64,000 bases of DNA from Candidatus Microgenomates bacterium (GTDB taxonomy: Bacteria; Patescibacteriota; Microgenomatia; UBA8517). The stretch's first letter is position 1; every line of letters starts with the position of its first letter. A program made the translations under genes and the position numbers. The stretch lies in the NCBI GenBank assembly GCA_049523135.1, contig JBEKNE010000001.1, positions 542,809-606,808 on the forward strand, in the 5' to 3' direction. This document shows, piece after piece, positions 11,981-34,224 of the stretch. The notes under the pieces are model-generated. The model saw only the letters and a list, made by a program, of their open reading frames with translations. It did no database searches and was not told the DNA's origin.

Positions 11981-11983
11981 ATA

Positions 11984-12514
11984 TTATTGTGTTAATCCTG
12001 CTGGACAAGCAGCATCATCAAAGGATGGTGTTTCTGACGAAACAAGTTTGCCCGACTGACCTGTTGAACATACAATCCAATACGTATTTGTCGCACTTTC
12101 AAGTTTAGCCCAAAGGATATACTCTGTAGCTAAAGCGTTTGATTGATAATGATATTGAAGATAAGAATTGTCGTTTGCATATTTCGGATCTTCGGGACAA
12201 TCTGAAGTGTTGGTCAAAAAACCTGAACTAACTAGAGCAGAGCATAAACCACTCGTAATAGTAGAGGCTGCAGAAGGAAAATAAAGACCGTTATTCTTAT
12301 TTGCATAGGATTCAAGTGCATTTCTATATTGAGAAAGGTCAGATTTTCTTTGAGTATCCCTCGCTTGTTTTTGAGCCGAAACAAAAGAAACCGTAAACAA
12401 CGCCACCAAAATCCCGATAATGGAAATAACAACAAGAAGTTCAATTAGTGTAAATCCCTTTATATTTTTTTTCATTGTTGACTTACTTGAAACATCCAAC
12501 CGGTAGAACACCAC
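11984..12514 (-). CDS. Type IV pilin/pseudopilin (start probably at the internal MKKNIKG)
   Basis: KG|FTLIELLVVISIIGIL. Confidence 0.75.
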   Translation of the reverse strand: MVFYRLDVSSKSTMKKNIKGFTLIELLVVISIIGILVALFTVSFVSAQKQARDTQRKSDLSQYRNALESYANKNNGLYFPSAASTITSGLCSALVSSGFLTNTSDCPEDPKYANDNSYLQYHYQSNALATEYILWAKLESATNTYWIVCSTGQSGKLVSSETPSFDDAACPAGLTQ

Positions 12515-12999
12515 GTTGTATCACTTGTAGCAATTCCACTAGTATCACTTTGGTTTTCCAGACATGCGGAAAGAGTGTAAGAATCAGTATCACTTGGGTC
12601 TGAAGCATTACCCATTACATATTTATAATTTTGAGTTGCAGAGGTCGGATCTTGAGACATAGGATCTTTCGGAAGAGTTTGCATATAAATAGTTGATCCG
12701 ATATTCCACTCGGTACCCCAAGTGCAAATAACAACTGTTCCGCCTCCGTTGGGATCACAAGCCACCATTTGATTACTACTGCTAGATGGATATCTTCCTT
12801 TGTCATTGTAATAAAGCCTGAGTGCGGTCTGAATATTTTTAAGATCTGATTTTCTTTCCACATCACGCGCGCGTGACCTCGCTGAATTTAAATTTGCCGC
12901 AACCAGCGTAGCCAAAATTCCTATTATGGAAATAACAACAAGAAGTTCGATAAGCGTAAATCCGGATTTTTTATATGATGATAGATTATGGGCAGACAT
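12472..12999 (-). CDS. Type IV pilin/pseudopilin
   Basis: KKSG|FTLIELLVVISIIGILA. Confidence 0.75.
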   Translation of the reverse strand: MSAHNLSSYKKSGFTLIELLVVISIIGILATLVAANLNSARSRARDVERKSDLKNIQTALRLYYNDKGRYPSSSSNQMVACDPNGGGTVVICTWGTEWNIGSTIYMQTLPKDPMSQDPTSATQNYKYVMGNASDPSDTDSYTLSACLENQSDTSGIATSDTTWCSTGWMFQVSQQ

Positions 13000-13024
13000 A
13001 TTCTAATACTTATATTACTACATA

Positions 13025-13528
13025 CTATTGCGGTGGGGTAGTATTTGGGCTTGTTATTGCAAAATTACAGAGAGTATTTGTACCACAAGAATAACTTGTT
13101 GAAATTAATTCCGGATCTTGAGTATTTTCAAGATGGGCATAAAGCTGAAAACCCTGACCCGATAAAACAGTTGTATAAAAATAGCTATAAGAATATGTGG
13201 GATCTTTAGGTAAAGTCTTGAAATATATGGTCTTACCGTCAGTAAAATCGCCAGTTCCCCAAGAACAACTGCCGCCGGGGGAAGGACAACCGAGAATTTT
13301 ACCAGCTAATGCCGGAGGATAACTGCCGTAATCCGAATAATAAAGTTCGAGTGCACTGGAAATTTGTCCCAGATCGGACTTTCTTTCCGTATCCCTTCCC
13401 CTCATTTGAGCACTGGTAAATGTTTCCAGACCGATAGTAGCCAAGATCCCCAAAATGGCTATAACCACAAGGAGTTCAACCAACGTAAATCCCTTATTTT
13501 CCATTTTGTTTCTGTAATAAGTCATCAT
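13025..13528 (-). CDS. Type IV pilin/pseudopilin
   Basis: NKG|FTLVELLVVIAILGILA. Confidence 0.75.
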   Translation of the reverse strand: MMTYYRNKMENKGFTLVELLVVIAILGILATIGLETFTSAQMRGRDTERKSDLGQISSALELYYSDYGSYPPALAGKILGCPSPGGSCSWGTGDFTDGKTIYFKTLPKDPTYSYSYFYTTVLSGQGFQLYAHLENTQDPELISTSYSCGTNTLCNFAITSPNTTPPQ

Positions 13529-14132
13529 AAGCCTTTATTGAAATATTTATCGGCACGTTGTAGGAACGTCCGATATTGCAAATTCTGGTTCCGCAGTAAA
13601 GACCCCTGGCAATTATGCCCGGGTCGATTTCAGCTTCATCTTTAGCTTCCATTGACGCATAAATTTGGTACCTGTTCCCGTCAGTAAGATATAAATACTT
13701 TACACCCTTTTTATAATCCGGATCTTGAGGAAGCCTTTGCATATAAACTTCGCCTGTAATAAGGTTTGTGAATGCATCCGTTCCCCATTCGCAGGGGATT
13801 GGTGTATAGTCCCACCCGCCGGATTTATTTTTAATCGGCTTAGCTCCCGGTTTAAGACAATCAATAATGCGTCCGTCAGGTGTAGCCGCCGGCAAAGCAT
13901 TATTAAACTCTGCAAGATATTGATCAAACGCGTGATTAAGAGCTCCCATATCGTCTCTTCTTACCTGATCGCGGGCTTTTTCTAAACTAATAATAAAATT
14001 TGGGGTGGCTACTGCCGCCAAAACCAAAAAAATTACAATGAGTGAAATTATTTCGGGTTTGGTAAAAAATTTCATAATAATTAATGCACGGCAATACATT
14101 GATTTCCGGAAACGCCGCATACGCCATAACAT
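13494..14132 (-). CDS. Pilin-like protein with a degenerate leader (no G-FTLxE)
   Basis: MKFFTKPEIISLIVIFLVLAAVATPNF gives a hydrophobic N-helix and a pilin-like size and position, but the canonical cleavage motif is absent. Confidence 0.4.
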   Translation of the reverse strand: MLWRMRRFRKSMYCRALIIMKFFTKPEIISLIVIFLVLAAVATPNFIISLEKARDQVRRDDMGALNHAFDQYLAEFNNALPAATPDGRIIDCLKPGAKPIKNKSGGWDYTPIPCEWGTDAFTNLITGEVYMQRLPQDPDYKKGVKYLYLTDGNRYQIYASMEAKDEAEIDPGIIARGLYCGTRICNIGRSYNVPINISIKAYDDLLQKQNGK

Positions 14133-14737
14133 GTCGGGTTCTGGTAGTTAGGATCGCATTCAGGCCCCGGTATTGAGCTGTCCCATCCGATCGGTTGGCA
14201 ACTCCCGTTTATACAACCATAAAAATTCGAACCACCACTATTGCCACCGCTTGTACCTGTCGGGGTTGTCGTCTGAGTTATACCGGCAATATCAATAGGA
14301 GCATTTGGTGAACCTTGGACATAATTAAAGGCTTTATTAGGACCAATATTGGGAATTACCGACCCGTCTTGTGTATTTTGTAAAATAGAATAAATTTTGT
14401 ACCAACCCGGGCAATCAGGATTAGATGTGTCGTAAATATAAACAAACGGTACGTTCTTGACAGGATCACAAGGAATGTTATTCAAATAGGGATATATCTC
14501 ACTTGAACCACTATTCGCTCCGCAATAATCAATATCCTTAGGATAACAGTTGTGGTCCTTTTCATATTCTTCAACTGCAACCTGAATTCTATTGACATCT
14601 GCCTTTCTTTTTGCGTCATTTCCTTTAAAAATTTGTCCTGTGAAATAGGCGATAGTTATAGCCGACAAAATCGCAAGTAAAGCAACAACAATAAGAAGTT
14701 CAACTAATGTGAATCCAGAAAAGTATTTTTTCACCAT
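14081..14737 (-). CDS. Type IV pilin/pseudopilin
   Basis: YFSG|FTLVELLIVVALLAIL. Confidence 0.75.
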   Translation of the reverse strand: MVKKYFSGFTLVELLIVVALLAILSAITIAYFTGQIFKGNDAKRKADVNRIQVAVEEYEKDHNCYPKDIDYCGANSGSSEIYPYLNNIPCDPVKNVPFVYIYDTSNPDCPGWYKIYSILQNTQDGSVIPNIGPNKAFNYVQGSPNAPIDIAGITQTTTPTGTSGGNSGGSNFYGCINGSCQPIGWDSSIPGPECDPNYQNPTCYGVCGVSGNQCIAVH

Positions 14738-15452
14738 AAATTAAAGCTAACGGAATTGCCAAAACTAAAAATGGTCCAAAAGCAATTTGACTTTTAAATC
14801 CTGCTTTTCTACCTAAAATAAGTATGCTTCCCACGATTGCACCTGTCAAGAAAGCTAAAAATAACCAAACCAAAAACAGTCGCGGGCCAACAATTAAACC
14901 CCCTAAGACCGCCAACTTAACATCTCCCAATCCCATTCCCCGGCCTTTAGTAACTAAATGGATAATTAAAAGTAAAACTGAAGCGGCAAGCCCAGTAAAA
15001 AGATTCGGGAAAAGAGAACTTCCATTAACAAAAATATAATAAAAAAATGCTAGTCCGATTCCACAAAACACGAATAAGTCGGGAATAATTTTTCCCTCCA
15101 AATCAATTACCAAAATCGAAATTAGTATCAAAAAAAGAATTAAGGAATAAATAAATTGAAAATAGTACGAAGAAAAATTTAAAAAAATAATCAAAAATCC
15201 TAAACCGGTGGAAAACTCAATCAGGGGATAGCGGAAAGAAATTTTTTTCCTGCAGTTTCTGCATTTTCCACCCAAAAACAAAAATGAGAGTAGGGGGATA
15301 TTGTCGTACCAAGCGATTTGTCTTTTGCAGTTCGGGCAAAAACTCCGACCTTTGGCAATAGAAATTTGTCTAGGATAACGCCAAGTTAAGGCCGCAACAA
15401 AAGATCCAAAAACTAAACCGAGAATAAAAATAAGAATATGAGGAAGAATCAT
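14700..15452 (-). CDS. pilD: Prepilin peptidase (A24 family)
   Basis: Polytopic protein; CPNCKRQIAWYDNIPLLSFLFLGGKCRNC is a tetra-Cys zinc motif; DLEGKIIPD is a catalytic Asp region. Confidence 0.8.
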   Translation of the reverse strand: MILPHILIFILGLVFGSFVAALTWRYPRQISIAKGRSFCPNCKRQIAWYDNIPLLSFLFLGGKCRNCRKKISFRYPLIEFSTGLGFLIIFLNFSSYYFQFIYSLILFLILISILVIDLEGKIIPDLFVFCGIGLAFFYYIFVNGSSLFPNLFTGLAASVLLLIIHLVTKGRGMGLGDVKLAVLGGLIVGPRLFLVWLFLAFLTGAIVGSILILGRKAGFKSQIAFGPFLVLAIPLALIYGEKILFWIHIS

Positions 15453-16121
15453 TTACTCCGGAACACACTCGGCACAGGTTGGTAGTGATCCAGCAGCAGT
15501 AGTCCAACCTGTAGCACCAGGAGTACCACAATTTTCGGTATAAACCGGAGTACCGGTTGCACTAAATCCGCCGTTAACATTAGTCATTTTGCACGGACCT
15601 GTAGCACTTCCTGATGTACAACTATTTATTAATGTTTGTCGGTTTGCACTCGACTTCGGTACCCAGCATACATATACTCCAGAAGAAGCACCCGAAGCTT
15701 TGCCAATAAAAAGCTTGTCACTTACTTGTGTAGCACCTATCCATGACTTACTTAAAAAGGAAGTTTCAAGTTCAAAAGAAGAAATCAAAGGAGCGGGTGA
15801 AGCGCTTGTATTCTGACATGAAGCACCTGTAGCCGCACACAAACCAACAGTTACATCGTCAGCACTAATCCATCCAAATGGGCTATCACTGGTTAATGCT
15901 GGATTTGATGTAACCCAGGGAAAAGCAGTTGTGCTAGCGTAATATCTCTGAATTGCAGAAACCAACTCACTCGCGTCATTCTTGTAGCCGGCGTCCCTTG
16001 CTTTATTTGCCTGCTCAATAGGATTAATGGCGGCAATGACCATCGTCGCAATGACACCAAGAAGTGCAATAACAATTAGAAGTTCTACAAGTGTAAATCC
16101 TTTAGACAGAATCCTTTTCAT
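15453..16121 (-). CDS. pilA: Type IV pilin (candidate major pilin PilA)
   Basis: MKRILSKG|FTLVELLIVIALLGVIA; located directly between pilC and pilD. Confidence 0.7.
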   Translation of the reverse strand: MKRILSKGFTLVELLIVIALLGVIATMVIAAINPIEQANKARDAGYKNDASELVSAIQRYYASTTAFPWVTSNPALTSDSPFGWISADDVTVGLCAATGASCQNTSASPAPLISSFELETSFLSKSWIGATQVSDKLFIGKASGASSGVYVCWVPKSSANRQTLINSCTSGSATGPCKMTNVNGGFSATGTPVYTENCGTPGATGWTTAAGSLPTCAECVPE

Positions 16122-16142
16122 TCCTTTATTAAGTATTAACCC

Positions 16143-17348
16143 TTAAATTTGACTTGTCAAGTTGTATATAGGGAGTATCACAGCAATAACCAAAAATCCG
16201 ACTCCTAGTCCCAAAATTACCATAACGATTGGTTCTATAGCGGCGGTCAAACCTTTAACTTCTTCGTCACTTTGAACTTCAAAAATATGACTGATCTTGG
16301 TTAAGACATCTTCCATTTTTCCCGTTTCTTCTCCGACCGCAACCATCTGGCTCAAGATAAAAGGAAAGGCTTCGGGATGGCGTGCAAAAGCAAAAGCCAT
16401 AGGAAATCCCTTTTCAACCTGTGCTGAAACATCTTTCAGAGCATCCGAAACTACAGTGTTGCTCACAACCTCTGAAGTAATATTTAAGGCTTCAAGAATG
16501 GGAACTCCCGCCCCAACCATTAAAGAAAGAGTGCGGGTAAGATCGGTCAAAACTATCTGGCGCTGTAAATTGCCAAAAACAGGAATTTTAAAAATAAGTT
16601 CATCGATCTTTCTCCTTCCGGCAGGGGTTGCCTTATACAAACGGTATCCATAAAGTCCACCGACGATCAGAACAATCATCAAAAACCAGAAATGAATAAA
16701 AAAATTCGAAATGCCAATCAAAATTAATGTCGGTAGAGGCAGAGTAGCGTTAAAATCCGCATAAAGAGAAAGAAGTTTAGGAATAACAAAAATCATCATT
16801 ATGAAAGTCACAATTACCATTCCGGTAATTATTATTACCGGATAAATAAGAGCTCCCTTAACTTTACTGCCAAACTCCTGCTGTTTTTCCAAACTGTCCG
16901 CAAGTTTTATAAGTACAGCATCCAGTACCCCTCCGACTTCTCCCGATTTCACAAGAGCAATGTAAGTTCTGCTAAAAACTTTCGGGTGTCTTCCCAAAGC
17001 ATTTGAAAAAGATTCACCGGCTTCTATATCCGCCAAAAGCTGGGCTACAATTTTTTGCATTGAACCCTTAGACTGAGAACGCAAAACCAAAAGACCTTCG
17101 GTGATGGGAAGGCCTGCAGTAATCATTGTAGAAAGCTGACGGGTAAAAGTGGATACATCGGAAGAAGTAATTCTATCCTGAAATCTTCTGATAAGCGCAA
17201 AGGGGGAGTCGATTTTGGCAGCAAGTGAAATCACATAATAACCGCGACTTTTTACAAGTCTGGCAGCTTCATTTATATTTATTGCCTCGACTTCGCCCTT
17301 AACAAGCTTTCCGTTTTTATCCTTGGCCTTGTAGTTAAATCGTTTCAT
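16143..17348 (-). CDS. pilC: Type IV pilus assembly platform protein PilC (GspF family)
   Basis: 401 aa with two T2SSF repeats and three TM segments. Confidence 0.8.
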   Translation of the reverse strand: MKRFNYKAKDKNGKLVKGEVEAININEAARLVKSRGYYVISLAAKIDSPFALIRRFQDRITSSDVSTFTRQLSTMITAGLPITEGLLVLRSQSKGSMQKIVAQLLADIEAGESFSNALGRHPKVFSRTYIALVKSGEVGGVLDAVLIKLADSLEKQQEFGSKVKGALIYPVIIITGMVIVTFIMMIFVIPKLLSLYADFNATLPLPTLILIGISNFFIHFWFLMIVLIVGGLYGYRLYKATPAGRRKIDELIFKIPVFGNLQRQIVLTDLTRTLSLMVGAGVPILEALNITSEVVSNTVVSDALKDVSAQVEKGFPMAFAFARHPEAFPFILSQMVAVGEETGKMEDVLTKISHIFEVQSDEEVKGLTAAIEPIVMVILGLGVGFLVIAVILPIYNLTSQI

Positions 17349-17371
17349 TCAATTATCTTTTTATAGAAGGT

Positions 17372-18430
17372 TTAGGTACTCCTGACCAATCTCATAAGCT
17401 CTTCCGGACGAAGTGACCAACTTTGTGCCATTTCTAATGTAACAATTCCTTTTTTGACCAAATCCGCCAGAGATTTCTCCAAAGTACTCATTCCCGCCTC
17501 CTGAGAAGTTTCCAGAGTGCTTTCGATCTGATGAGTTTTACCGTCCCTGATTGCCGTTTTAATTGCAGTCGTACCCAGCATTACCTCATAAGCCACTGCC
17601 CGTCCTTTGGTGGTGGTTTGAATCAGTCTTTGCGAAAATACAGCTTCAAGAACATTGGAAAGTTGAAGCTGTACCTGCTTTTGCTGTTCATCGGGGAAGA
17701 CGTCAACAATTCTGTCAACCGACTGCGCGGCAGAATTTGTATGCAAAGTTGCAAACACAAGATGTCCCGTTTCCGCAACTGTCAGAGCGGCCGCAATTGT
17801 TTCATAATCCCGCATTTCACCAACCAGTACAACATCGGGGTCTTCCCTAAGAACGCTCCTTAGAGCAATTTCCCAAGAATGAGTATCGTTGTGCATTTCC
17901 CTTTGAGAAATAATAGATTTAATAGGACTAAAGACAAACTCTACAGGATCCTCAATTGTAACTATGTGGGCGGCTCTATTTTTATTAATCTCCTGAAGCA
18001 TTGCTGCCAAGGTAGTTGACTTTCCATGGCCGGTTGGACCCGTGATAAGAACCAAACCCTGTTTAAGAACCGTAAAAGAATGGAGAATGGGAGGAAGACC
18101 CAACGATTCTATCGAAGGTATCTCCAAAGGAATCAACCTGAAAGCTGCTGCAGAGGAACCTTTTTGTGTATAAGCATTAACCCGGAATCTTCCTTTCTCG
18201 GAAAAGGGAAATGAAAAATCCAATTCCCTGTTCACACTAAGTCGTTCCATTTGTTCACTTGTCAGAATTTCTTTAAGAAGTTCCGAGATTATATCCGGAG
18301 TCAAAACTCCGGTTCCGGGGAGGGGAATAAGCTCTCCGTCAATTCTAAGCGTGGGGGGAATACCGGTGATAAGATGCAAATCACTGGCTTTAGCGTCAAC
18401 CACTCCTTGTAACAATTGTTTTATATCCAT
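17372..18430 (-). CDS. pilT: Twitching motility ATPase PilT
   Basis: Walker A GPTGHGKSTTLAAM; 352 aa, typical PilT size. Confidence 0.8.
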   Translation of the reverse strand: MDIKQLLQGVVDAKASDLHLITGIPPTLRIDGELIPLPGTGVLTPDIISELLKEILTSEQMERLSVNRELDFSFPFSEKGRFRVNAYTQKGSSAAAFRLIPLEIPSIESLGLPPILHSFTVLKQGLVLITGPTGHGKSTTLAAMLQEINKNRAAHIVTIEDPVEFVFSPIKSIISQREMHNDTHSWEIALRSVLREDPDVVLVGEMRDYETIAAALTVAETGHLVFATLHTNSAAQSVDRIVDVFPDEQQKQVQLQLSNVLEAVFSQRLIQTTTKGRAVAYEVMLGTTAIKTAIRDGKTHQIESTLETSQEAGMSTLEKSLADLVKKGIVTLEMAQSWSLRPEELMRLVRST

Positions 18431-18440
18431 AATTTTTTAG

Positions 18441-20177
18441 TTAGTCCTGAGCAACTCTCAGTACCTCTTCCACAGTAGTTATTCCTTCAACCGCTTTCAA
18501 GAATCCGTCTTGCTCTAGACTAATCATTCCTTCATCCGTAGCCTCTTTTTCAATCGCGGCTGCGGAAGAATGCTCCAAAATAAGTTTACCGATCTTCTCC
18601 GTAATGGGAATAACTTCAAAAATACCGATTCTGCCATAATAACCGGAGTTGCCACAATCCGGATCTCCTTTACCTCTGTAAAGTTTTACGTCCCCCTGGG
18701 GCTGCCAAAGATTTCCCAACTCCACCTTTATGCTTTCGACAACTTTCGGATCAGGGGTATAAGCTTCCTTACAATCATCGTGAATCTTTCTGACAACCCT
18801 CTGGGCAACAATGCAGGTCATAGATGAAGCAAGAAGATAAGGTTCTGCTCCCATATCAAGAAGCCTCGGAAGAGCTCCCGAGGCATCATTTGTATGCAAT
18901 GTCGAAAAAACAAGATGTCCGGTAAGTGCCGCCTGTACGGCCAAATCAGCAGTTTCGCGGTCACGAATTTCCCCGACAAGAATAATATTCGGGTCCTGCC
19001 GCAAGAATGCCCTAAGTCCGTCCGCAAAAGTAAGTCCCACGGCAGGGTTAATCTGCACCTGATTAACCCCCGGGATTCTATATTCGATAGGATCTTCCAA
19101 AGTAACAATGTTAACTTTAGCCGTATTAAGCTTAGAAATAATTGAATACAAAGTGGTTGTTTTACCGCTTCCGGTTGGGCCGCAGATAAGAATTATTCCG
19201 TGAGGTCTTAAAATTGCATCCTGAAGATTTTTAAGGCCGCGTCCGCGAAGTCCAAGTTCGGGTAGGTCCGGAACTCCGCCGCTTTTCTTAAGTAACCTCA
19301 TGACAATTTTTTCTCCCCAAGTTGTCGGCAAGGAGCTAATACGAAGATCAACTTCCTCATCGCTTCCTTTAAAATTAAAGCGGCCGTCCTGAGGAATTCT
19401 TTTTTCATCAATTTTCATTCCGCTTAAAATTTTAATTCTGGAAACAAGGGAATCGTGAAGCTCCTTGGGAATCGAAAGCTTTTCCTGCAAAATTCCGTCG
19501 ATGCGGTAACGCACGCGGGTCGACTGCTCTTCAGGCTCTATGTGGACATCGCTGGCCCTACTTTTAATAGCAAAGTCCAAAATTTGCGAAACTATCTGGG
19601 CAATTTTTTCCTCGCGGATAAATCCTCCCTTTCCATTCTCAAGAGTTGTAACTTCCTGTTTTTCGGGTGCAACATCTTTCAAGGCCGCCGTAACTTCCTG
19701 CGTTAACGAAGTTGTATAACGGGTTTGAACAAAATCATCAATCTGGGACGGAAGCGCAGCACAGGGCTTTACATGAAAGCCTGTTTTTTGTTCAATAAAT
19801 TCAATTGCGGAAAGGTCCAGGGGGTCAGCCATTGCCAGTACAATACTTTTGTCTTTTATATCTATGCTTATCGGAAAGACGCGGAAACGGGTGGCAACCT
19901 CGGAAGGAAGGGAAGATAAAGCGGCCGGGGCTACCGGAATGGAACTTAAATCAACATAAGGAATATTGTAAAGTTGGGCTCTTGCCTGAACCAGCTTGGC
20001 TTCAGGAACCATCGCACTTTTTCTGATTATGTCTTCCTGTGTAGAACCACTTTGAATTTCCGCAAGTTTTATTTGTTCTGCACGCTTGGCATCGAGAGCA
20101 CCGAGGGAAACCAAAACATCGGCTAAAGTGGTTCCGGTACCATTTGCATTGGGTTGAACAGGTTGGGTAGTGGGCAT
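18441..20177 (-). CDS. pilB: Type IV pilus assembly ATPase PilB (GspE family)
   Basis: GPTGSGKTTTLYS; N-terminal GSPII domain; 578 aa. Confidence 0.85.
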   Translation of the reverse strand: MPTTQPVQPNANGTGTTLADVLVSLGALDAKRAEQIKLAEIQSGSTQEDIIRKSAMVPEAKLVQARAQLYNIPYVDLSSIPVAPAALSSLPSEVATRFRVFPISIDIKDKSIVLAMADPLDLSAIEFIEQKTGFHVKPCAALPSQIDDFVQTRYTTSLTQEVTAALKDVAPEKQEVTTLENGKGGFIREEKIAQIVSQILDFAIKSRASDVHIEPEEQSTRVRYRIDGILQEKLSIPKELHDSLVSRIKILSGMKIDEKRIPQDGRFNFKGSDEEVDLRISSLPTTWGEKIVMRLLKKSGGVPDLPELGLRGRGLKNLQDAILRPHGIILICGPTGSGKTTTLYSIISKLNTAKVNIVTLEDPIEYRIPGVNQVQINPAVGLTFADGLRAFLRQDPNIILVGEIRDRETADLAVQAALTGHLVFSTLHTNDASGALPRLLDMGAEPYLLASSMTCIVAQRVVRKIHDDCKEAYTPDPKVVESIKVELGNLWQPQGDVKLYRGKGDPDCGNSGYYGRIGIFEVIPITEKIGKLILEHSSAAAIEKEATDEGMISLEQDGFLKAVEGITTVEEVLRVAQD

Positions 20178-20265: not shown

Positions 20266-24140
<3,875 letters not shown>

Positions 24141-24517: not shown

Positions 24518-25135
24518 TCAAGAGGAATCGGGGAGTCTGAAAAGATAAGAAGTGGCCTTGCCCGCATTTCCTCTGCGGTGGGAAAATAAAGTTTTATCCT
24601 CAAAAGTGCAATTTTCGTCAATCTGAATATTACTTTCACTAACTCCAAATTTAGTTAATTGTTCTCCGGCAATTTCTCCCAAATCAAGATAGATCTTTTC
24701 CTTTACCTTTTTAATTGCTTTTGGGTAATTTTTAAATTTGTTGTAAACATCGCTTTTAATTTCGTAGTGTTTTTGACAAATATGCGGACCAATAAAAACA
24801 AAGATGTCTTCTGGATTTGCACCAAATTTTTTATTCATCAAGTTGATAGCGTTTTTGATTATTCCTTTATATAAACCCCGCCAACCGGCATGCACCAAAC
24901 CAATACTATTAGTAGAAGGGTTATAGAAAAAAATCGGCAAACAGTCGGCAACTGAGATTTTTAAAATAACTTCCGGTGAGTTAGTGATAAGTCCGTCACA
25001 ATTTTTAATTATCCGTCCCGCATCTTTTTTACCAACGCAAACCACTTTTACTTCGTGCACCTGTTGCATTCCAATTACATTTAACGTGGCCATTGACAAA
25101 TTATATACATTTTCTAAAATATGCGTAGGACTCAA
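24518..25135 (-). CDS. YfiH/PgeF-family laccase-domain protein (peptidoglycan editing factor / purine nucleoside phosphorylase-like)
   Basis: GLVHAGWRGL is the family signature; the start is probably at the internal MATLNV. Confidence 0.75.
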   Translation of the reverse strand: MSPTHILENVYNLSMATLNVIGMQQVHEVKVVCVGKKDAGRIIKNCDGLITNSPEVILKISVADCLPIFFYNPSTNSIGLVHAGWRGLYKGIIKNAINLMNKKFGANPEDIFVFIGPHICQKHYEIKSDVYNKFKNYPKAIKKVKEKIYLDLGEIAGEQLTKFGVSESNIQIDENCTFEDKTLFSHRRGNAGKATSYLFRLPDSS

Positions 25136-27268
25136 GAAAAGAGTCCTTTATATTTACAGAAAATGTTCGCGACAAGCTCATTTTTAACAATAATCTTAAG
25201 CACAGCAATTGCCGCAATTATGGTTGCTTTGGGTTTAGCAAAATACGCTCTCGGTAAAGAAAAGGGAAGTCCCGAAATGGAAGAAGTTAGTAAGGCAGTC
25301 CAGGAAGGTGCCAATGCATACCTCAAAAGACAGTTCAAAACAATAGCTCCAATAATTGTAATTCTGGCGATATTCATTTATATAAGCGCCCCTGCCGGTT
25401 CTCCCGCCTTGGGCAGAACCTTGGCATTTCTTATGGGGGCAGTCTTCTCGGCAACCATTGGCACGATAGGGATGAATATTGCAACAAGGTCAAATGTTAA
25501 AGTTGCCCAAGCTGCTACCAAAAGCTTCGGAGATGCCCTATCCCTTGCCCTTAAGGCCGGAGCGACAACCGGAATGCTAACTGTAGGTCTGGGACTTCTG
25601 GGAGCTACTTTAATCTATTGGCACTATGGAGGAATGGCAACGGAGGTTCTGATTGGATTCGGTTTCGGGGGAAGCTTACTGGCTCTTTTCATGAGGGTAG
25701 GCGGAGGAATTTACACCAAAGCGGCTGACGTCGGGGCAGACTTGGTGGGAAAAGTTGAAAAAGACATTCCCGAGGACGATCCCAGAAACGCGGCGGTAAT
25801 TGCCGATCAGGTTGGAGATAACGTCGGGGATTGTGCCGGAATGGCCGCGGATATTTTCGAGTCATATGAAGTAACTCTTGTTGCTGCCATGATTTTGGGT
25901 ACGGCAACTTTCGGAATTGCTGGGGTTCTTTTCCCTCTGGCCGTCAGGGCACTGGGTATCGGAACCTCAATGTTGGGAATTTTTAGCATCAGTCCCAAAA
26001 ACAAAAACTCAATTAAGGATGGCATGAATGCAATTCTCAAGGGGTTTGGTGTGGCAAGTGTTGTTTCCATTGCCGGGTTTATTGCCCTTTCCTACCTCTT
26101 CACCCATGACTGGAGACTGGCAGCTGCTTCCACCTTGGGTATTATTCTTGCGGTTGCCATATTCCTTCTTACCGACTACGCCACGGGTGATCATAAACCG
26201 GTTAAAGAAATCGTCAGACAGGCTCAAACCGGTCCGGCTACTGTAATTTTGTCAGGACTTACAAACGGATTTTCCTCGACAGTCTGGGCAATTCTGGCCA
26301 TCGGAGTTACAATTCTTGTTTCCTTCCTTCTTTTCAGTAATCCTTTAATGGCGGCTTACGGAGTGGCACTGGCCGGAATGGGGATGCTGACAACTACCGG
26401 ACTTATTGTTTCCATGGATTCATACGGACCAATTTCGGATAACGCCCAGGGAATTTCGGAGCTTGCCGCAATGAAGGGCAAAGCGCTGGGCATTCTTAAC
26501 AAACTCGACTCAATAGGAAATACCACAAAAGCCACAACTAAAGGTTTTGCGATTGCTTCAGCCGTAATCGCTGCAGTTTCGCTTTTTGAATCGTACCTCG
26601 ACAGTTCTCACTTAAGCGGAATAAATATTGCCCATCCGCTGGTTTTCGTAGGATTCCTAATAGGGGGTGCTCTGCCGTTCCTCTTCTCCAGTCTGACAAT
26701 TAAGGCCGTTTCCGATTCCTGTTTCGCGATAATCAAGGAAGTAAGGCGACAATTTAAGGAAATGCCGGGTATCATGAAGAGAACCCAAAAACCCGATTAT
26801 GCAAGAGTAGTGGATATGACCACCAAAGCGGCACTTTCGGCTCTCGCGGCCCCGGCTCTTATTGCAATTGTCGTCCCGATCTTGGTTGGGGTTATGCTCC
26901 ATGCGGAAGCCCTCGGAGGATATCTTGCCGGAGCGATTCTAACAGGTCAGCTCCTGGCCGTATTTATGAGCAACGCGGGCGGAGCCTGGGACAATGCCAA
27001 AAAGATGGTTGAGGCAAGGGAAGTTAACGGAAAAGGAAGCGATGAACATAAAGCCACGGTTGTGGGTGATACGGTCGGGGATCCTCTAAAAGATACTGCC
27101 GGTCCCGCTTTAAATCCTTTGATCAAGGTCATGAATTTGGTAGCGCTTTTGGCCGCACCGGTTATAATTTCCATTAAAGGGTTTGGTTTACTTTACTGGG
27201 CAATTGTCATAGTAGGCTTCGGAATTGTGATTTACTCCCTAGTCAGATCTCAAAAAGCAGTAGCTTAA
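25121..27268 (+). CDS. hppA: Membrane-bound H+(or Na+)-translocating pyrophosphatase
   Basis: [20 protein letters not shown] and [21 protein letters not shown] are H+-PPase signatures; about 16 TM segments; 715 aa. Confidence 0.9.
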   Translation: [715 protein letters not shown]

Positions 27269-27460: not shown

Positions 27461-27489
27461 TTGACAAAGCATCTCATAATCGGTATTTT
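27461..27489 (+). promoter_or_regulatory. Sigma70-like promoter (TTGACA-17-TATTTT) in an AT-rich 380-nt intergenic region
   Basis: TTGACA at 27461-27466, a 17-nt spacer, TATTTT at 27484-27489. Confidence 0.4.
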
Positions 27490-27574: not shown

Positions 27575-27608
27575 AAAGGACATTTCTTTTTTGAAGTGTC
27601 CTTTTTTT
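27575..27608 (+). terminator. Rho-independent terminator / attenuator hairpin upstream of the repeat-protein gene
   Basis: 9-bp stem (GGACATTTC at 27578-27586 with GAAGTGTCC at 27593-27601), a 6-nt loop and a 7-T tail at 27602-27608. Confidence 0.55.
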
Positions 27609-27653: not shown

Positions 27654-28085
27654 ATGAAAAAAGTTTTAAGTGTCGTCGCAGCAGGAGCTTTGCTCTTTAG
27701 TGTAGCGGGTGTAGTTTTTGCAGCTCGCAGCATAACAACCCAAAATAACATGGGTACATTAACCGTTGTTGGTTCAGTTGCTGTTAGCAATTCCGGACTC
27801 AACTTTCAGAAAGATAATGGTTTCAAGGTTATGTCAACCGGAAATACAGCCGCTGTAAGCGGAGTACAATCTGTTGCTAATCAAAACGGTAAAGGACTTG
27901 GGGTTGGTACAACCACCCAAACCAATACTAAAACAGGGACTCTTGTCTTATCTGTGGCAGCAAGCAATTCCGGATTAAATGGTCAATCCGGAACTGGCTC
28001 CGTCATGCATACAGGTGATGCAGGAAGTAGTTCCACTGTTTATTCATGGGCAAACATAAATCTTAGCGGAGTAACACTCGAATAA
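27654..28085 (+). CDS. Small secreted repeat protein (candidate major subunit of a surface structure)
   Basis: Strong SD AAAGGGGGTG; signal peptide MKKVLSVVAAGALLFSVAGVVFA; two copies of a roughly 45-aa N/S/G/T-rich repeat (..VAxSNSGLNxQ...G..VM.TG[DN]xA..S...) shared with the next gene. Confidence 0.7.
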   Translation: MKKVLSVVAAGALLFSVAGVVFAARSITTQNNMGTLTVVGSVAVSNSGLNFQKDNGFKVMSTGNTAAVSGVQSVANQNGKGLGVGTTTQTNTKTGTLVLSVAASNSGLNGQSGTGSVMHTGDAGSSSTVYSWANINLSGVTLE

Positions 28086-28100
28086 GATTTATTCCATCTG

Positions 28101-28130
28101 GGGGCGGTCGCCTTCGGGCGACCCGCCACC
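28101..28130 (+). terminator. GC-rich stem-loop with a UUCG tetraloop between the small and large repeat-protein genes (partial terminator / stabiliser)
   Basis: GGCGGUCGCC-UUCG-GGCGAC(C)CGCC, a 10-bp GC stem with one bulge and a weak U-tract; conspicuous in an AT-rich genome. Confidence 0.45.
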
Positions 28131-28169
28131 ATTTGGTAGTTAATCATTCTGCCTTTAGAAAGAAATATT

Positions 28170-30263
28170 TTGAAAAAGTTTTTAAAAATTTTGGTCTTAA
28201 CTCTTGCCCTCTGGCAGGCTTTATTTGGTCCTGTTTCTCTTTCTTTGGTTTACGCCCAGGATGATACTTCCAGTTCAACTCCAACCGATACACCAACATC
28301 AACCCCGACCTCTACTCCCGACCAAACTATGGTTACCGGAGACGCTTCAGCCTCGGCAGATTCACAGACAGATTCGAATATTTCCGATATTTCTACTACA
28401 CCCACACCAAGTCCGACCGATGAACCAACACCGATAGATACTTCTACTCCTGATGCTACAGAATCGGCGACATCCGTCATTGATGCCACAGGTTCGGCAA
28501 CTTTAGACCCGGAAGCGACTTCATCAACCACCCCAACTCTAACACCATCCGATATCTCCGTTGATCAATCCAGAGCAGTTACAACAAACACGGCCTCAAT
28601 TGCCAATTCCGGTAATAATACCCAACAAAATGAAAACGCTTCCGGAAGCGCAACCATGACAACAGGGGATGCTGGAAGTTCCAGTAGTTCCATAACAGTC
28701 ACAAACCTTTCCACTATCGACTCCAACCTGGTAACAACTGTCCAAAATATTTTAACTTCAAATAACAATGATGTTGATCTTTACCAATTACTGGAATCTG
28801 CCGTTGCCCAAAATCCCAATCTTATTCCGGCAAATACCAATATAACCGTTACCCAAAACGCAAATGTTAGCACCAATACCGTTGCGGAAAGCAACACGGG
28901 AGAAAATAGTCAGAGCTCGGACTCAGCTGGTATGCAAACGGGTGACGCCACATCGGTTGCCTCAGCAATTAATGCAACCAATCTTAATCTTGTTGGTTCA
29001 AATGCGGTTTTATTTATTATCAACATCTTGGGAGATTATTCAGGAAATATTATTTTACCGGACGGCAAAACTGTTTCTTTAGTCTCTCTGGGACTAGGGA
29101 ATGTTAATGTTAATTCCAACCAAAGCGCGGATGTTAATGCAAATACCGAGGCAGGCGCAAACTCAGGAAACAATAATCAAACCGGCGGCAGCACAGAAAT
29201 GACAACAGGTACCGCGGTAAGTACTTCCAACTCAAATTCTTTTGTCAATCTTGTTCAAATCGGCGGAGGTTGGGGATATGTTGTAATAAATAACTCGGGA
29301 AGCTGGACCGGAAACCTAATCGGTTGGACCGCTCCGGGATCTACCCAAACTTTGCCCCAGGGAACTACAAATTTAGCAGAGAGTTCACAATCAAATACAA
29401 ACGGAGAAACAGGAACAACAAATATTACTTCTAATCAAACTGCAAATGTTTCCACCAACGTTTCGGCGGATGCCAATACCGGTAGTAATAATCAAACCGG
29501 CGAGAGTCTTAATTTAACTACCGGTAATGCTTTTTCTCTTGCAAATAATTTTACCCTGGCAAATATTACAGGTGTCGGCGCAAACCTTTTCTTTGGAATA
29601 ATAAATATATTTGGAAATTGGACGGGAAACCTAACCAAAGGCCCCTATACCCCACCTGCAAGTGATCCTCCGGCAGATTCCGCTCAAACTGATAATTCTT
29701 CACCCGATACACGTACACCCGATTTACAAATTACAACAACAAACAATGTGGGGAAGTTTGTTTATCCCGGTGATACTGTTCTTGCAAATATTACTGTAGT
29801 AAATCAAAGCGCGTTTACAGCACATAATGTTGAAGTAAAAGGTCAGCTAACTAACGACCACCCTATGCCGGCAATTCCAATGGATTGGAAAGTGGGAGAT
29901 CTCAGACCGGGTGGAAAAGCCAAAATCAATTTTTCTATTACCCTTACCTCCAATTTACCAGCGGGTCAGTATAATATTTCAGCAACAGCAATAGGAGACA
30001 GCGAAAGCGGAGACGCAGTCTCAGTGGATTCAAACAGTTCTTTCTGGGTCAGAGTCAAAGGCGCAATTGCAGAGATCACCAGTCCGTCCGTTCTTGCTGA
30101 ATCTCCGATAAATGAAGATGAAAATGTCCTGGGAATTGAAACTTCGAAACCAACTCTTGACATTAATAAATACTTGCCCTATATTCTGGCTAGTCTTGCC
30201 GCTGCCTATTTGCTGATACTTTTTGCCAGAAGAAAGTTGGAAGAAAATGAAAAGAATAAATAA
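28170..30263 (+). CDS. Large membrane-anchored surface repeat protein (Thr/Pro-rich stalk, four N/Q/S/T repeats, DUF11/CARDB-like domain, C-terminal TM plus basic tail)
   Basis: Signal peptide; mucin-like TPTSTP region; four imperfect repeats of about 50 aa (AxxN[ST]GxNxQ...M[TQ]TG[DN]A.S...N...G.N..F.I.NI); NVEVKGQLTND..AGQYNISATAIGDSESGDA (DUF11-like); C-terminus KYLPYILASLAAAYLLILFARRKLEENEKNK. Confidence 0.7.
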   Translation: MKKFLKILVLTLALWQALFGPVSLSLVYAQDDTSSSTPTDTPTSTPTSTPDQTMVTGDASASADSQTDSNISDISTTPTPSPTDEPTPIDTSTPDATESATSVIDATGSATLDPEATSSTTPTLTPSDISVDQSRAVTTNTASIANSGNNTQQNENASGSATMTTGDAGSSSSSITVTNLSTIDSNLVTTVQNILTSNNNDVDLYQLLESAVAQNPNLIPANTNITVTQNANVSTNTVAESNTGENSQSSDSAGMQTGDATSVASAINATNLNLVGSNAVLFIINILGDYSGNIILPDGKTVSLVSLGLGNVNVNSNQSADVNANTEAGANSGNNNQTGGSTEMTTGTAVSTSNSNSFVNLVQIGGGWGYVVINNSGSWTGNLIGWTAPGSTQTLPQGTTNLAESSQSNTNGETGTTNITSNQTANVSTNVSADANTGSNNQTGESLNLTTGNAFSLANNFTLANITGVGANLFFGIINIFGNWTGNLTKGPYTPPASDPPADSAQTDNSSPDTRTPDLQITTTNNVGKFVYPGDTVLANITVVNQSAFTAHNVEVKGQLTNDHPMPAIPMDWKVGDLRPGGKAKINFSITLTSNLPAGQYNISATAIGDSESGDAVSVDSNSSFWVRVKGAIAEITSPSVLAESPINEDENVLGIETSKPTLDINKYLPYILASLAAAYLLILFARRKLEENEKNK

Positions 30264-30918
30264 AGCAGCTATCGTTTTTACACTTCTTTTTATTGCTTCA
30301 TTGGGTTTAGTTGGAAAAGTAAACGCAAGTATAATAAATACTTTAAACATAACTATTCAAAACCCGCCAACCCCTCCGACTCCTCCTAAAAAACCCGAAC
30401 CTCCGCTCCCTCCAAATTTACCTACTCCTACACCTAAAGCAACTTCAACGCCGGTTCCGACGTCAAATACGACATCGACTTCAACATCAGGCGGCGGAGG
30501 AAGTGCCCCAAGTTGTAATGCAGCAAAACCCGGAACTCCCGTTATTTATAGTGAGATAAGAAAAGGGACGAGCGAAATTTTAACCTGGTCAAGTGTACCC
30601 AACGCAACATACTATTCAATTATTTACGGAGAAATAAACGGTCAATATCCATATGGTGTACCAAACACGGGAAATGTGACCTCATACACGATTAACGATT
30701 TGAAACTTGGTACAGCCTATCACTTTAAAGTTAATGCCGTTAATGATTGTATGCCGGGAGATTCCGGAGTACTAGGCAGCGGACAAGTTTTAGGTGCTTC
30801 CACAATGGCAGGGACAGGTACCTTTGAACAAAACATCTTCTTAGCTATAATGGGATTTGGTGGTATCATTTCACTTTTCGGTATCAAAAACTTCAAGAAA
30901 GCTTTTAGTAAAGCTTAA
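30223..30918 (+). CDS. Fibronectin type III domain surface protein with Pro-rich linker and C-terminal TM anchor (start likely at MKRINK, 30247)
   Basis: Signal/TM, PPTPPTPPKKPEPPLPPNLPTPTPK, an FN3-like segment (PGTPVIYSEI..TWSSVPNATYYSIIYGE..YHFKVNAVN), C-terminal hydrophobic stretch plus KNFKKAFSKA. Confidence 0.6.
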   Translation: MPEESWKKMKRINKAAIVFTLLFIASLGLVGKVNASIINTLNITIQNPPTPPTPPKKPEPPLPPNLPTPTPKATSTPVPTSNTTSTSTSGGGGSAPSCNAAKPGTPVIYSEIRKGTSEILTWSSVPNATYYSIIYGEINGQYPYGVPNTGNVTSYTINDLKLGTAYHFKVNAVNDCMPGDSGVLGSGQVLGASTMAGTGTFEQNIFLAIMGFGGIISLFGIKNFKKAFSKA

Positions 30919-31486
30919 AAAGCTTATCCCCAAAAAGCCAAGGTCAAAGAAAAAAAGAATACTTCTTAGAAATTCCTTAATTTTTATTTCTCTGGGTTTA
31001 ATTGTGACGATCTTCGGCGGGGTAAACTACTATAGGGTCAGGACGCTTTCTTTCAACTCGGTTCCTCCCGAAGTAAAAACTGCAACAAAAAACATTGATA
31101 TACCCGTTGAGATTATGATTCCTTCCATAAAAATTGATTTGCCGGTAGACCCGGGTGAAATCGATAACGGTGTTTGGAAAGTTTCAGCCGCCAACGCTAC
31201 TTTTCTTTCAACTTCCGCAGCTCCGGGGAACAGAGGCAACACGGTTATTTACGGACATAATCTGAAAGCAATTTTTGGTAATCTTCCGTACTTAAGCGTC
31301 GGACAAAAAATAATTATTAAAACAAAAAGCGGAAAAATTTATAATTATGTTGCCTCACAAAAATATTTTGTCGGTCCCGACAGGACCGATTTGGTTTCAC
31401 CAACAATTAAAGAAGAGCTGACAATCTACACCTGTTGGGGAGTTTTTGACAGTCAAAGGGCTGTTATTAAAGCCAGCCCAATTTAA
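30857..31486 (+). CDS. Sortase-family transpeptidase (start uncertain, probably non-ATG downstream of 30857)
   Basis: N-terminal TM; NRGNTVIYGHN (catalytic His), LTIYTCWG (TLxTC Cys) and SQRAVIKA (Arg) align with the SrtA H120/C184/R197 regions. Confidence 0.7.
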   Translation: MVVSFHFSVSKTSRKLLVKLKKLIPKKPRSKKKRILLRNSLIFISLGLIVTIFGGVNYYRVRTLSFNSVPPEVKTATKNIDIPVEIMIPSIKIDLPVDPGEIDNGVWKVSAANATFLSTSAAPGNRGNTVIYGHNLKAIFGNLPYLSVGQKIIIKTKSGKIYNYVASQKYFVGPDRTDLVSPTIKEELTIYTCWGVFDSQRAVIKASPI

Positions 31487-31572: not shown

Positions 31573-34224
31573 ATGAATACAGATATCGGTAAAGTTCTCT
31601 CAACTGAAATAACCTCGGAACTCTCAACTTCTTACTTGGATTATGCAATGAGTGTAATCGTAGCTCGCGCCCTCCCGGACGTCAGGGACGGCCTTAAGCC
31701 GGTCCACAGACGCATCCTCTACGCAATGCACCTTATGGGGCTCCATTTCTCCCAATCAGGCACCACAAAGAGCGCCAAGGTCGTGGGAGAAGTCCTCGGA
31801 AAATACCATCCGCACGGAGATATGGCAGTTTATGATGCAATGGTCCGCTTGGCACAAACTTTTTCAATGCGCTATCCCTTAGTCCACGGACAGGGAAATT
31901 TCGGCTCCGTTGACGGAGATCCACCGGCAGCCATGCGTTATACGGAGGTTAAGCTGGCAAAAGCCGCCGATGCAATGCTTGCCGATATGGAAAAAGAGAC
32001 CGTTGACGTTGTTGATAATTTTGATGCCACTCTCAAAGAACCGGTTTACCTTCCCGCACTTCTTCCAAACTTGCTTTTGATGGGTTCCGAAGGAATTGCG
32101 GTCGGAATGGCAACCAAAATCCCGACTCATAATTTAAGCGAAGTTGTGGACGCTATCGTTGCAATGATAGAGGCGGGAAGAGTCACCAAAAATCAGGCGG
32201 TTGAAGGAACCGAAATAAAAACCAATGAAGAACACGCTGATTTTATTATTAAAAAGATTAATTTGGTTGCCTCGGGCGCCGAGAAAGCTTTAACTCAGGA
32301 AGAAGTTAACCCCAGTGAAATCAGTTTTGAAAGCGACATTACGATCGATGATCTTATTAAATACATTCCGGGTCCGGATTTCCCGACAGGCGGTGCAATT
32401 TATAATGCCGCATCTTTAAGCGAAGTTTATTCAACTGGCCGCGGAAAAATTGTTGTCAGGGGAATTGCCGAAATTACGGAAGGAGCCAAAGGCAAACAGC
32501 AAATTGTAATTACAGAACTCCCGTATCAAGTAAATAAAGCCGAACTTGTGGCTAAAATTGCAGATCTTGTCAAAGACAAAAAGATTGTGGGTATTTCGGA
32601 TCTCCGGGATGAGTCCGACAAAGACGGAATGAGGGTTGTAGTTGACCTGAAGCGGGACGCCAAACCGAAAGCAGTTCTAAACAATATCTTCAAACATACA
32701 AAACTTCAAACCAGTTTCCCCGCAAATTTTGTCGCACTTGTTGACGGAACACCTCATACCCTTAACCTCAAACAAATTTTAATTGAGTATGTAAAGCATA
32801 GACAAAAAGTTGTAACGAGAAGAACCATTTTTGATTTAACCGAAGCCAAGAAGCGAGCCCATATTTTGGAAGGGCTTAAAATTGCACTCGACAATCTTGA
32901 TGCCGTTATTAAAACGATAAGGGAAAGCAGAACTCAGGAAGATGCCAAGAAAAATTTAATTAGCCGGTTTGGTTTAAGCGAAATTCAGGCAACGGCAATA
33001 CTTGATATGCAACTAAGGCGCTTGGCCGCACTTGAACGCGAAAAAATAGAAAAGGAATATGAAGAAATAGAAAAGCTGATCAGTGAACTGACTGCAATTT
33101 TAAGAGATCCGAAAAAAGTTTTGGATATAATTGTTACTGAAATTAAAGAACTCAAAGAAAAATATGGGGACGGGCGCCGAACCAAAATTTATAAGCATGC
33201 TGTCGGGGAATTCAGCGAGGAAGATCTGGTTGCCAAGGAGGAAACTTTAATCACCGTAACCAAGACGGGTTATGTCAAAAGACTTTCCGCAAGCGCTTAC
33301 AGGGCCCAGAGGAGGGGAGGCAAAGGGGTAATCGGAATGACCACCAAAGAAGAAGATGAAATTGAACACCTCGTCGACGCCACAACTCATGATACTATCC
33401 TATTCTTTACAAATAAAGGCCGTGTTTTTGGTATTAAAGCTTGGGAAATTCCTGAAAGCTCACGACAGGCAAAGGGACAAGCTCTCGTCAACCTTCTAAA
33501 CCTTGAACAGGATGAAGAGATAAGGTCAATTCTTCCTCTTTCCAAAGAATCCGGTATTAAACACTTGATTATGGCAACCAAAACCGGAGTAATTAAAAAA
33601 ACATCAATAAGCGAATTTGATAATTTAAGAGCTTCGGGACTTATTGCAATAAAACTAAGAACTGATGACCAGCTTATTTCGGTTCATCCGACTACGGGAG
33701 ACGATCACATTATCCTTTTAACCAGAAATGCTAAATCAATAAGATTTCCGGAAGCAAATGTACGGCCAATGGGTAGGGCAACAACCGGAGTAACCGGAAT
33801 AAAACTCGAGAGCGGAGACGAACTTATCGGTATGGAAGTTTTTCCCGGAAAAGAATCAATTCCGGCCGATAAAAGAAGAAAATATTTCAGGGATATTCTT
33901 ACAATTGCCGAGAAAGGTCTTGGGAAGCGTACACCAATCCATCTTTTCCCCGTTCAAAAAAGGGCAGGCAAAGGAGTTAAAGCAGCGGTAGTCAGTCCCA
34001 AAACGGGGAATCTAAAGCTGGCAATTATGGTTACACAAAATTTCGATCAGGTGGTAATAACCAGCAGAATGGGACAGGTGATTAAGCTTCCCTTGAAAAA
34101 TCTTCCTCAACTCGGGCGCGCTACACAGGGAGTTATCCTCATGCGCTTTGCCGATAAAGATGATTCTGTTGCCGCCGCCGCCGTATTGGAAAAGGGAGGA
34201 GAAGACGAGGAAGAAACTTCATAA
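31573..34224 (+). CDS. gyrA: DNA gyrase subunit A
   Basis: [33 protein letters not shown] and the active-site Tyr region AAMRYTE; C-terminal beta-pinwheel repeats; 883 aa. Confidence 0.9.

Follow-up and report, generated by a model that had tools for sequence, protein, structure and literature searches.

The 64,000-nucleotide (nt) stretch of DNA analyzed here (the window) comes from Candidatus Microgenomates bacterium (GTDB lineage Bacteria; Patescibacteriota; Microgenomatia; UBA8517) and corresponds to positions 542,809-606,808 of the forward strand of contig JBEKNE010000001.1 in assembly GCA_049523135.1. Four of its genes, all on the forward strand, form a cassette that encodes a small exported protein of 143 amino acids (aa), denoted pA, a large anchored surface protein of 697 aa (pB), a proline-rich protein located 3' of pB (pC) and a sortase (Table 1). 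The small and the large protein are built from copies of the same repeat, two in pA and four full copies plus one half in pB. The start codon of the pA gene is preceded by a strong Shine-Dalgarno sequence (AAGGGGGTGA), and the TTG start assigned to pB agrees with the N-termini of its homologs; the signal peptides of both proteins were read from sequence.

Table 1. Coordinates of the cassette, its predicted elements and the neighboring genes of the window.
Feature	Position in window	Strand	Protein residues	Remarks
Promoter-like site	27461-27489	+		TTGACA-17-TATTTT; from a consensus scan, in which such sites are no commoner than in shuffles
Terminator-like hairpin in pA leader	27575-27604	+		12 bp, followed by a T-run; ~50 nt before the pA start, downstream of the promoter-like site
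pA	27654-28085	+	143 aa	ATG start; exported, no anchor
pA signal peptide	27654-27722	+	1-23	MKKVLSVVAAGALLFSVAGVVFA, then A at the mature start
pA repeat 1	27732-27908	+	27-85	core-only
pA repeat 2	27909-28082	+	86-143	core-only
Stem-loop between pA and pB	28099-28131	+		GC-rich, UUCG loop; -33.5 kcal/mol, z = -3.9
pB	28170-30263	+	697 aa	TTG start; anchored surface protein
pB signal peptide		+	1-29	MKKFLKILVLTLALWQALFGPVSLSLVYA, then QDD at the mature start
pB half-repeat	28323-28391	+	52-74	TGDA and long strand; pLDDT (local distance difference test score, as predicted) ~91; partial match to the repeat hidden Markov model (HMM), E 7e-4
pB linker		+	75-122	disordered, rich in Thr/Ser/Pro/Asp; pLDDT <50
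pB repeats R1-R4	28536-29645	+	123-492	each a long hairpin plus hydrophobic extension; HMM E 2.5e-14 to 9.5e-23
pB R1	28536-28814	+	123-215	
pB R2	28815-29084	+	216-305	
pB R3	29085-29399	+	306-410	
pB R4	29400-29645	+	411-492	
pB immunoglobulin (Ig)-like domain	29718-30053	+	517-628	CLIPPER/DUF11/CARDB type
pB C-terminal signal	30126-30260	+		VLGIET, transmembrane (TM) helix, basic tail RRKLEENEKNK
pB VLGIET motif	30126-30143	+	653-658	
pB TM helix		+	668-686	YLPYILASLAAAYLLILFA; helix at residues 665-696 in the model
pC	30247-30918	+		signal peptide, IINTLNITIQNPP...KPEPP, Pro/Thr linker, fibronectin type III (Fn3) domain (Pfam E 1.4e-7), QVLGASTMAGTG, TM segment, KK tail
Sortase	30857-31486	+		His (VIYGHN), Cys (TIYTC), Arg (SQRAV); Pfam Sortase E 9.8e-22
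Type IV pilus cluster	10067-20177	-		complete
Prepilin peptidase	14700-15452	-		
PilC/T2SSF	16143-17348	-		
PilT-like ATPase	17372-18430	-		
PilB-like ATPase	18441-20177	-		
gyrB	20880-24140	+		split by an intein (Pfam Intein_splicing) at residues 458-884
YfiH/Cu-oxidase_4 gene	24518-25135	-		
H+-pyrophosphatase	25121-27268			
gyrA	31573-34224			

A preliminary description of this DNA had proposed that two adjacent secreted proteins share an unnamed repeat of 45-50 aa; both open reading frames (ORFs) were found where it had placed them, and all the quoted peptides are present. The motif [SN][NST]GxNxQ...TG[DNT]A occurs at residues 46 and 105 of pA and at residues 146, 242, 331 and 436 of pB, and the repeat is absent from every other ORF of the window. 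Because Asn, Gln, Ser, Thr and Gly account for ~59% of each protein, composition was controlled for by comparing local alignment scores with those obtained for 500 composition-preserving shuffles of one of the partners. The resulting z-scores were 7-18 for repeats compared within pB, 12.9 for pA repeat 1 against pA repeat 2, and 7.6 and 6.0 for pA repeat 2 against pB repeats 2 and 4, respectively; the similarity between pA repeat 1 and the pB repeats is weak in pairwise comparisons (z 1.2-2.6). Profile methods detect both repeats of pA: an HMM derived from the four pB units alone matched pA with E = 2.9e-7 and pA homologs with E-values down to 4e-11, and hhalign comparison of the pA and pB families (92% probability, E = 5.8e-7) placed pA repeats 1 and 2 on pB repeats 2 and 3, with a gap of ~30 residues where pB has extra sequence. 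The shuffle z-scores and the profile comparison thus confirm a genuine repeat family common to the two adjacent exported proteins, and the repeat is conserved when homologs are aligned, with at least four full copies in 76 of the 76 pB homologs and two in the homologs of pA. Two details have to be amended: the length of 45-50 aa holds for the shared core (~46-50 aa) but not for the period, which is ~59 aa for pA and ranges from 89 to 105 aa for pB, and although both proteins are exported, pB additionally carries a C-terminal TM anchor.

The absence of a name for the repeat is also borne out. Searches of Pfam-A, NCBIfam and the PDB sequences returned no family over residues 123-492 of pB, over pA or over the repeat region of 60 family members; the PDB sequence searches were empty both with the proteins themselves and with the repeat profile, and a literature search found no paper describing the repeat. 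Iteration of the repeat HMM over 232 family proteins yielded 1,113 repeat instances. An exhaustive search of 1.84 billion representative proteins with the repeat profile retrieved 3,541 proteins at E<=1e-3, including 1,212 at E<=1e-30; a word-indexed search with an 82-column repeat profile, in contrast, retrieved only 3 proteins. The family proteins are typically 800-1,100 aa long and contain 5-6 repeats. Almost all named members come from Patescibacteria (Parcubacteria group, Microgenomates group and Patescibacteria group), the exceptions being one partial 'Anaerolineales' protein and one 6-kb contig of a 'Gammaproteobacteria' metagenome-assembled genome (MAG), which may represent binning noise. 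The word index yielded 76 homologs of pB, and all the named ones belong to Patescibacteria or Levybacteria MAGs.

The consensus of the 1,113 repeat instances is ....N.A.v.Nn..s.AnTG.N....gg.a.ItTGdA.S.aN..N.vNtN.vgsn.....iNifG.w.Gni. In the AlphaFold2 model of pB, built from a 60-sequence alignment, the mean pLDDT is 83, with values above 90 in the majority of the 10-residue blocks that make up the repeat region; in each repeat, a predicted 19-21-residue strand is followed by two short ones, a strand of 16 residues and, last, shorter strands. Mean-field direct coupling analysis of 849 non-identical repeat units (effective number of sequences, Meff, 810) revealed a clean antiparallel ladder in which i+j is ~54-56 (pairs 7-47, 9-47, 13-43, 15-39, 17-37, 19-37, 20-35 and 24-30/32). 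Because these two independent lines of evidence, the model and the covariation, agree, the predicted core of the repeat is a single long beta-hairpin formed by positions ~5-19 and 37-50, with strands of ~15 residues and a tip that consists of the conserved NTGxN...mini-hairpin...TGDA element. Ala or Val occupies positions 7, 9, 13, 15, 17, 37, 39, 41, 43 and 47, and Asn occupies hairpin positions 5, 11, 42, 45, 48 and 50; hydrophobicity alternates along both strands and, therefore, the hairpin is amphipathic.

Beyond the core, positions 56-64 (consensus WFLLIINIF; longer consensus WFLLIINIFGxWxGNI) form a strongly hydrophobic extension. This extension accounts for ~20 aa per hairpin in pB and is missing from pA; its occupancy is ~0.8 in the large proteins of the family and 0.05-0.3 in the small ones. 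Accordingly, we infer that in pB each extension covers the apolar face of its own hairpin, and that pA consists of two bare hairpins. The four hairpins of pB together with their extensions comprise a predicted folded superdomain of ~370 aa.

The domain architecture of pB surrounds this superdomain with surface and anchor features. On the N-terminal side, the linker sets the half-repeat apart from the main repeats; given the high confidence of its model, the half-repeat may dock on the repeat body. On the C-terminal side, a short Pro-rich linker leads to the Ig-like domain, which shows the CnaA-like or Ig-like beta-sandwich fold of CLIPPER/DUF11 domains; CLIPPER is the name recently given to DUF11, a domain that forms stalks in fibrillar adhesins (bioRxiv 10.1101/2025.04.25.650565). 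The window pB itself has no match to PF01345 or TIGR01451 at E<=1; among the 60 aligned homologs, PF01345 was detected in 29 (best E 2e-17) and TIGR01451 in 19, and P0002, which is 64% identical to pB, is among the matching proteins. The other C-terminal matches in homologs are to NPCBM_assoc, CARDB and DUF7507; the Pfam and NCBIfam matches in pB homologs are confined to C-terminal Ig-type domains, with none over the repeats. The first strand of the Ig-like domain is PDLQITTTNNVG and, by eye, there is no Lys at the usual isopeptide position.

The C-terminal combination of [VI]LGxxT, hydrophobic segment and basic tail is kept in most pB homologs, and in the large proteins P0002-P0053 the motif, [VI]LG[A/L/I]x[T], is 40-80 residues away from the C-terminus; it may be a non-canonical signal for a sortase or for other processing. 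In seven distant pB homologs (five of them in the aligned set), the C-terminal TM anchor is replaced by the peptidoglycan-binding domain PF01471, and both modes of anchoring point to a wall-associated surface protein. In three Patescibacteria that parasitize archaea, the exported proteins with the highest expression have been reported to include structurally similar ones with peptidoglycan-binding domains (Ca. Yanofskyibacterium and Minisyncoccaceae metatranscriptomes; for example, PMX_810_sub_00350, 2,079 nt, with an uncharacterized Microgenomates protein as the best match; PMC10936435). These proteins might belong to the PG_binding_1-bearing branch of the repeat family.

The small protein is different in its make-up. 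pA has ten close homologs, and all of these, like pA, terminate directly after repeat 2, without a hydrophobic or basic tail. The AlphaFold2 model of the pA monomer, built from a 10-sequence alignment, is poor (pLDDT 41.5), which fits, without proving, the view of pA as a pair of bare hairpins. Given that pA lacks a hydrophobic cover strand and that its monomer model is poor, this protein would plausibly need a partner or self-association.

The pairing of a small with a large repeat gene is a conserved feature of the family. The search for related loci (numbered with the prefix L) with a 16-sequence pB alignment seeded mostly on the Ig domain. The large gene has a small gene directly upstream, in the same orientation, in the close relatives L001 and L002; the same pair is present at 30-50% identity in L006, L011-L015 and L017, and at 25-34% identity, among unrelated flanks, in L003 (where two small genes precede the large gene), L005, L007, L008, L009, L018, L019, L021 and L023. 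The pair was found also in L029 and L030, which come from the top of the exhaustive search and include a named Parcubacteria MAG. Upstream DNA is available for 19 loci, and in 16 of these the HMM identified a small two-repeat ORF at E<=1e-3. The small ORF of L007 is detected (E 8.9e-5) only with the HMM speed filters off, in that of L005 the repeat is visible by eye only, and no small repeat ORF was detected in L024. Adjacency, order and orientation of the two genes are thus kept despite only ~25-30% identity of the large proteins and differing flanks, and the two genes are therefore likely to be functionally coupled.

Some loci contain variants of the small protein. L009 encodes (3351-4382) a 343-aa core-only variant with long Gly/Asp/Asn-rich inserts that enlarge the tips of its hairpins. 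L029 contains two variant genes (1867-2994 and 3187-3858), which code for a 375-aa core-only protein with four core repeats and for a protein of 223 aa that combines a single repeat with a Pro/Thr linker, an LPAAG-like signal, a TM segment and an RRRNR tail; therefore, some of the small partners appear to be anchored themselves.

As in the window, a stem-loop lies between the small and the large gene, with a different sequence, in L001, L003, L005, L006, L007, L008, L029 and L030; it is probably a transcription attenuator or a 3' stabilizer that would give more of the small than of the large product. The combination of a strong ribosome-binding site with a conserved stem-loop after the small gene suggests that more pA than pB is produced. 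The hairpin in the pA leader may act as an attenuator or, alternatively, terminate the upstream gene. Rfam contains no credible match for either the pA leader or the intergenic stem-loop.

Most loci with downstream DNA share the gene order pB, pC, sortase. Homologs of pC are encoded in L001, L003, L004, L006, L010, L011, L016, L019, L020, L023, L025 and L026; their mature N-terminus reads IINTLNIxIQNPP...KPEPP and is followed by a Pro/Thr linker and, optionally, the Fn3 domain, and at the C-terminus QVLGAST[ML]A[GK]TG directly precedes the TM segment and a Lys-rich tail. The C-terminus of pC therefore resembles a sorting signal of the LAxTG type, with which pB has just the [VI]LGxxT part in common, placed 9-20 residues ahead of its own TM segment and basic tail. 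The sortase falls below the cut-off of every NCBIfam class model (29-39 bits compared with 140-166); in particular, assignment to the polymerizing class C was rejected (class_C_sortase, 29 bits against a cut-off of 160). The possibility that pA is the major subunit of a sortase-assembled pilus with a sorting signal of its own was rejected as well, given that such tails are present only on pB and pC. There is a weak resemblance (domain E ~0.8) between the N-terminal strand of pC and HMM positions 40-52, which belong to the second strand of the hairpin, and the pC strand could serve as a donor strand.

The interpretation that we favor, and to which we give about an even chance of being correct, is that pA and pB are a conserved pair that makes up a Patescibacteria-type, sortase-associated two-component surface structure built from an unnamed all-beta repeat. 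Under this scenario, pB would be the anchored component, with the Ig-like domain as a stalk for the repeat superdomain; the co-encoded sortase would probably process the tail of pB, attaching it to the wall, and probably also that of pC through the LAxTG-like signal. pA, a secreted, anchor-less, core-only paralog with two bare hairpins, would bury its apolar face by packing on pB or on other pA molecules, and such packing would extend the beta structure outward as a fibril or a coat, either of which is a possible role for pA. The structure would be likely to mediate contact or attachment, either to host cells or to surfaces, or to form an envelope layer.

A more specific form of this scenario, which we consider improbable, would have the pA hairpins stack by sheet extension on a wall-anchored pB template, in a logic akin to that of the CsgB nucleator and the CsgA subunit, yielding a new, Patescibacteria-specific surface polymer of monoderms. 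Its products would be fibrils or a lattice through which the ultra-small epibionts touch their hosts, with the base fixed by a dedicated sortase that recognizes a non-LPXTG signal ([VI]LGxxT or LAxTG-like). Polymerization of pA on pB, if it occurs, would represent a new principle in the assembly of monoderm surface fibers.

Several observations weigh against the two-component surface structure. The shallow 10-sequence alignment may alone explain the poor model of pA. The stem-loop often has no U-tract, so that termination is uncertain. Given that L005, L007, L008, L009, L024, L029 and L030 have no nearby sortase, the enzyme is not obligatory, and the C-terminal motif of pB, which is separated from the TM segment by 9-20 residues, is not among the known sortase motifs. 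Finally, association of pA with pB or with itself is purely inferential.

The closest known counterparts of pB are the fibrillar adhesin-like CLIPPER/CARDB proteins (bioRxiv 10.1101/2025.04.25.650565; PDB 9IFR, 3IDU), which likewise combine a signal peptide, low-complexity linkers, an Ig domain near the C-terminal anchor and an adjacent sortase, and present a distal N-terminal module on a stalk. Unlike these proteins, pB has a single Ig domain rather than a tandem stalk, does not reach significance for PF01345 and has no evident isopeptide Lys; moreover, its distal module is an unnamed four-repeat superdomain without a PDB analog and comes with a dedicated small paralog. Spa-type sortase-assembled pili also involve several exported proteins with sorting signal-like tails and a dedicated sortase; in the cassette, however, the sortase is not of class C by NCBIfam, the presumably abundant pA has no sorting signal, and no pilin motif or E-box was recognized.

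Three other interpretations of the pair have to be weighed. One of these, which we regard as unlikely, is a two-dimensional surface layer or sheath, rather than a fibril or an adhesin, in which core-only and Ig-capped subunits co-assemble by beta-sheet augmentation. A precedent exists in the archaeal SH sheath proteins of Methanothrix and Methanospirillum, exported all-beta proteins that occur as small core-only and larger Ig-bearing forms, are encoded by neighboring genes and have been proposed to co-assemble by this mechanism (PMC11576556). pA and pB show the same mix of forms, and Patescibacteria genomes carry about one locus each of this widespread family; the proteins are acidic, free of Cys and rich in Thr, Ser and Asn, and one homolog matches the NCBIfam 'putative S-layer protein' model. 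However, two six-stranded sheets form a sandwich in the SH core, the pA/pB repeats were seen to match SH proteins neither in sequence nor in fold, the domain of life and the anchoring differ, and an Ig stalk on a single TM or sortase anchor is seen more typically in adhesins.

It is similarly unlikely that pA acts independently of pB, as a soluble ligand-binding or decoy protein or as a self-covering dimer, with the adjacency of the genes resulting from tandem duplication and co-regulation. Two hairpins could in principle make a closed homodimeric sandwich, and both the low pairwise similarity of pA repeat 1 to the pB repeats and the variation in the number (1 to 2 per locus) and size (139 to 375 aa) of the small genes are compatible with such independence. 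The preservation of order and orientation across lineages with strongly diverged large proteins and differing flanks, however, argues against it, as does the detached half-repeat of pB which, if docked, would illustrate that strands can be supplied from a separate segment.

The preliminary description also likened the repeats to functional-amyloid subunits such as curlin and suggested a self-assembling beta-rich fiber. The beta-rich nature of the repeat is supported by AlphaFold2 and covariation, both of which indicate an all-beta structure, and the general layout is that of curli: adjacent genes for a small secreted and a cell-associated protein with common, imperfect, Asn/Gln/Gly/Ser-rich beta repeats. 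A curli-like functional amyloid would have pA as the subunit and pB, perhaps, as an anchored nucleator, following the templating logic of CsgB and CsgA, with the repeats stacked in a cross-beta fiber. The polar composition of the mature protein, the lack of a cover strand and of a confident monomer fold in pA, and the likely excess of the small protein, which mirrors csgBA, all agree with this possibility; yet we consider it unlikely. There is no match to Curlin_rpt or any other amyloid family at E<=1 in pA or pB, nor to Curlin_rpt in 60 homologs, and the curlin motif S-x5-Q-x-G-x-G-N-x-A-x3-Q does not occur in either protein; the unit is a ~50-aa hairpin with 15-residue strands rather than a rung of 19-23 aa; and the repeats of pB, an anchored protein, are predicted to fold, with pLDDT >90, into a superdomain that has its own hydrophobic cover. 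In addition, no curli secretion genes (CsgEFG) are present, the organism is of the monoderm type, and anchoring is by a TM segment or a sortase. At the sequence level, the likeness to curlin thus does not hold, and for pB the amyloid reading is not supported. A low-complexity artefact or spurious ORFs, which the strongly biased composition might suggest, are excluded by shuffle z-scores of up to 18, thousands of homologs with conserved architecture, covariation that fits a defined fold and preserved synteny.

Patescibacteria, also known as the Candidate Phyla Radiation (CPR), account for a very large part of the diversity of bacteria and seem to live attached to other microbes. To our knowledge, their surface proteins are essentially uncharacterized, apart from type IV pili. 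Anchored surface-repeat proteins are a known kind; the repeat family itself, found in this poorly understood phylum, has not been described, has thousands of members, nearly all of the named ones in Patescibacteria, and lacks both a curated name and a structural analog in the PDB. The present analysis defines its conserved genetic partners, namely, the core-only paralog, the proline-rich LAxTG-like protein and the sortase, as well as a possible non-canonical sortase signal. The family members are candidates for host-attachment or envelope structures, and the domain deserves a family entry of its own.

In many of the related loci, the large repeat gene adjoins a gene for a membrane-anchored CAP/SCP-domain protein (PF00188; N-terminus MKIAHK..FPRESNN..KLLH). 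It was located at 9963-10832 in L003, 5419-6378 in L005, 7581-8525 in L007 and 7317-8189 in L030, and is present also in L004, L019, L022, L024, L025 and L028; no homolog of this protein is encoded in the window.

The complete type IV pilus cluster of the window contains, in addition to the genes listed in Table 1, a run of small ORFs of ~150-220 aa, and N-terminal methylation motifs were observed in four of the ORFs sampled from the cluster. Between this cluster and the cassette lies the intein-containing gyrB. The cassette shares the interval between gyrB and gyrA with the genes for the H+-pyrophosphatase and the YfiH/Cu-oxidase_4 protein, and the same succession of H+-pyrophosphatase, cassette and gyrA is found in L006.

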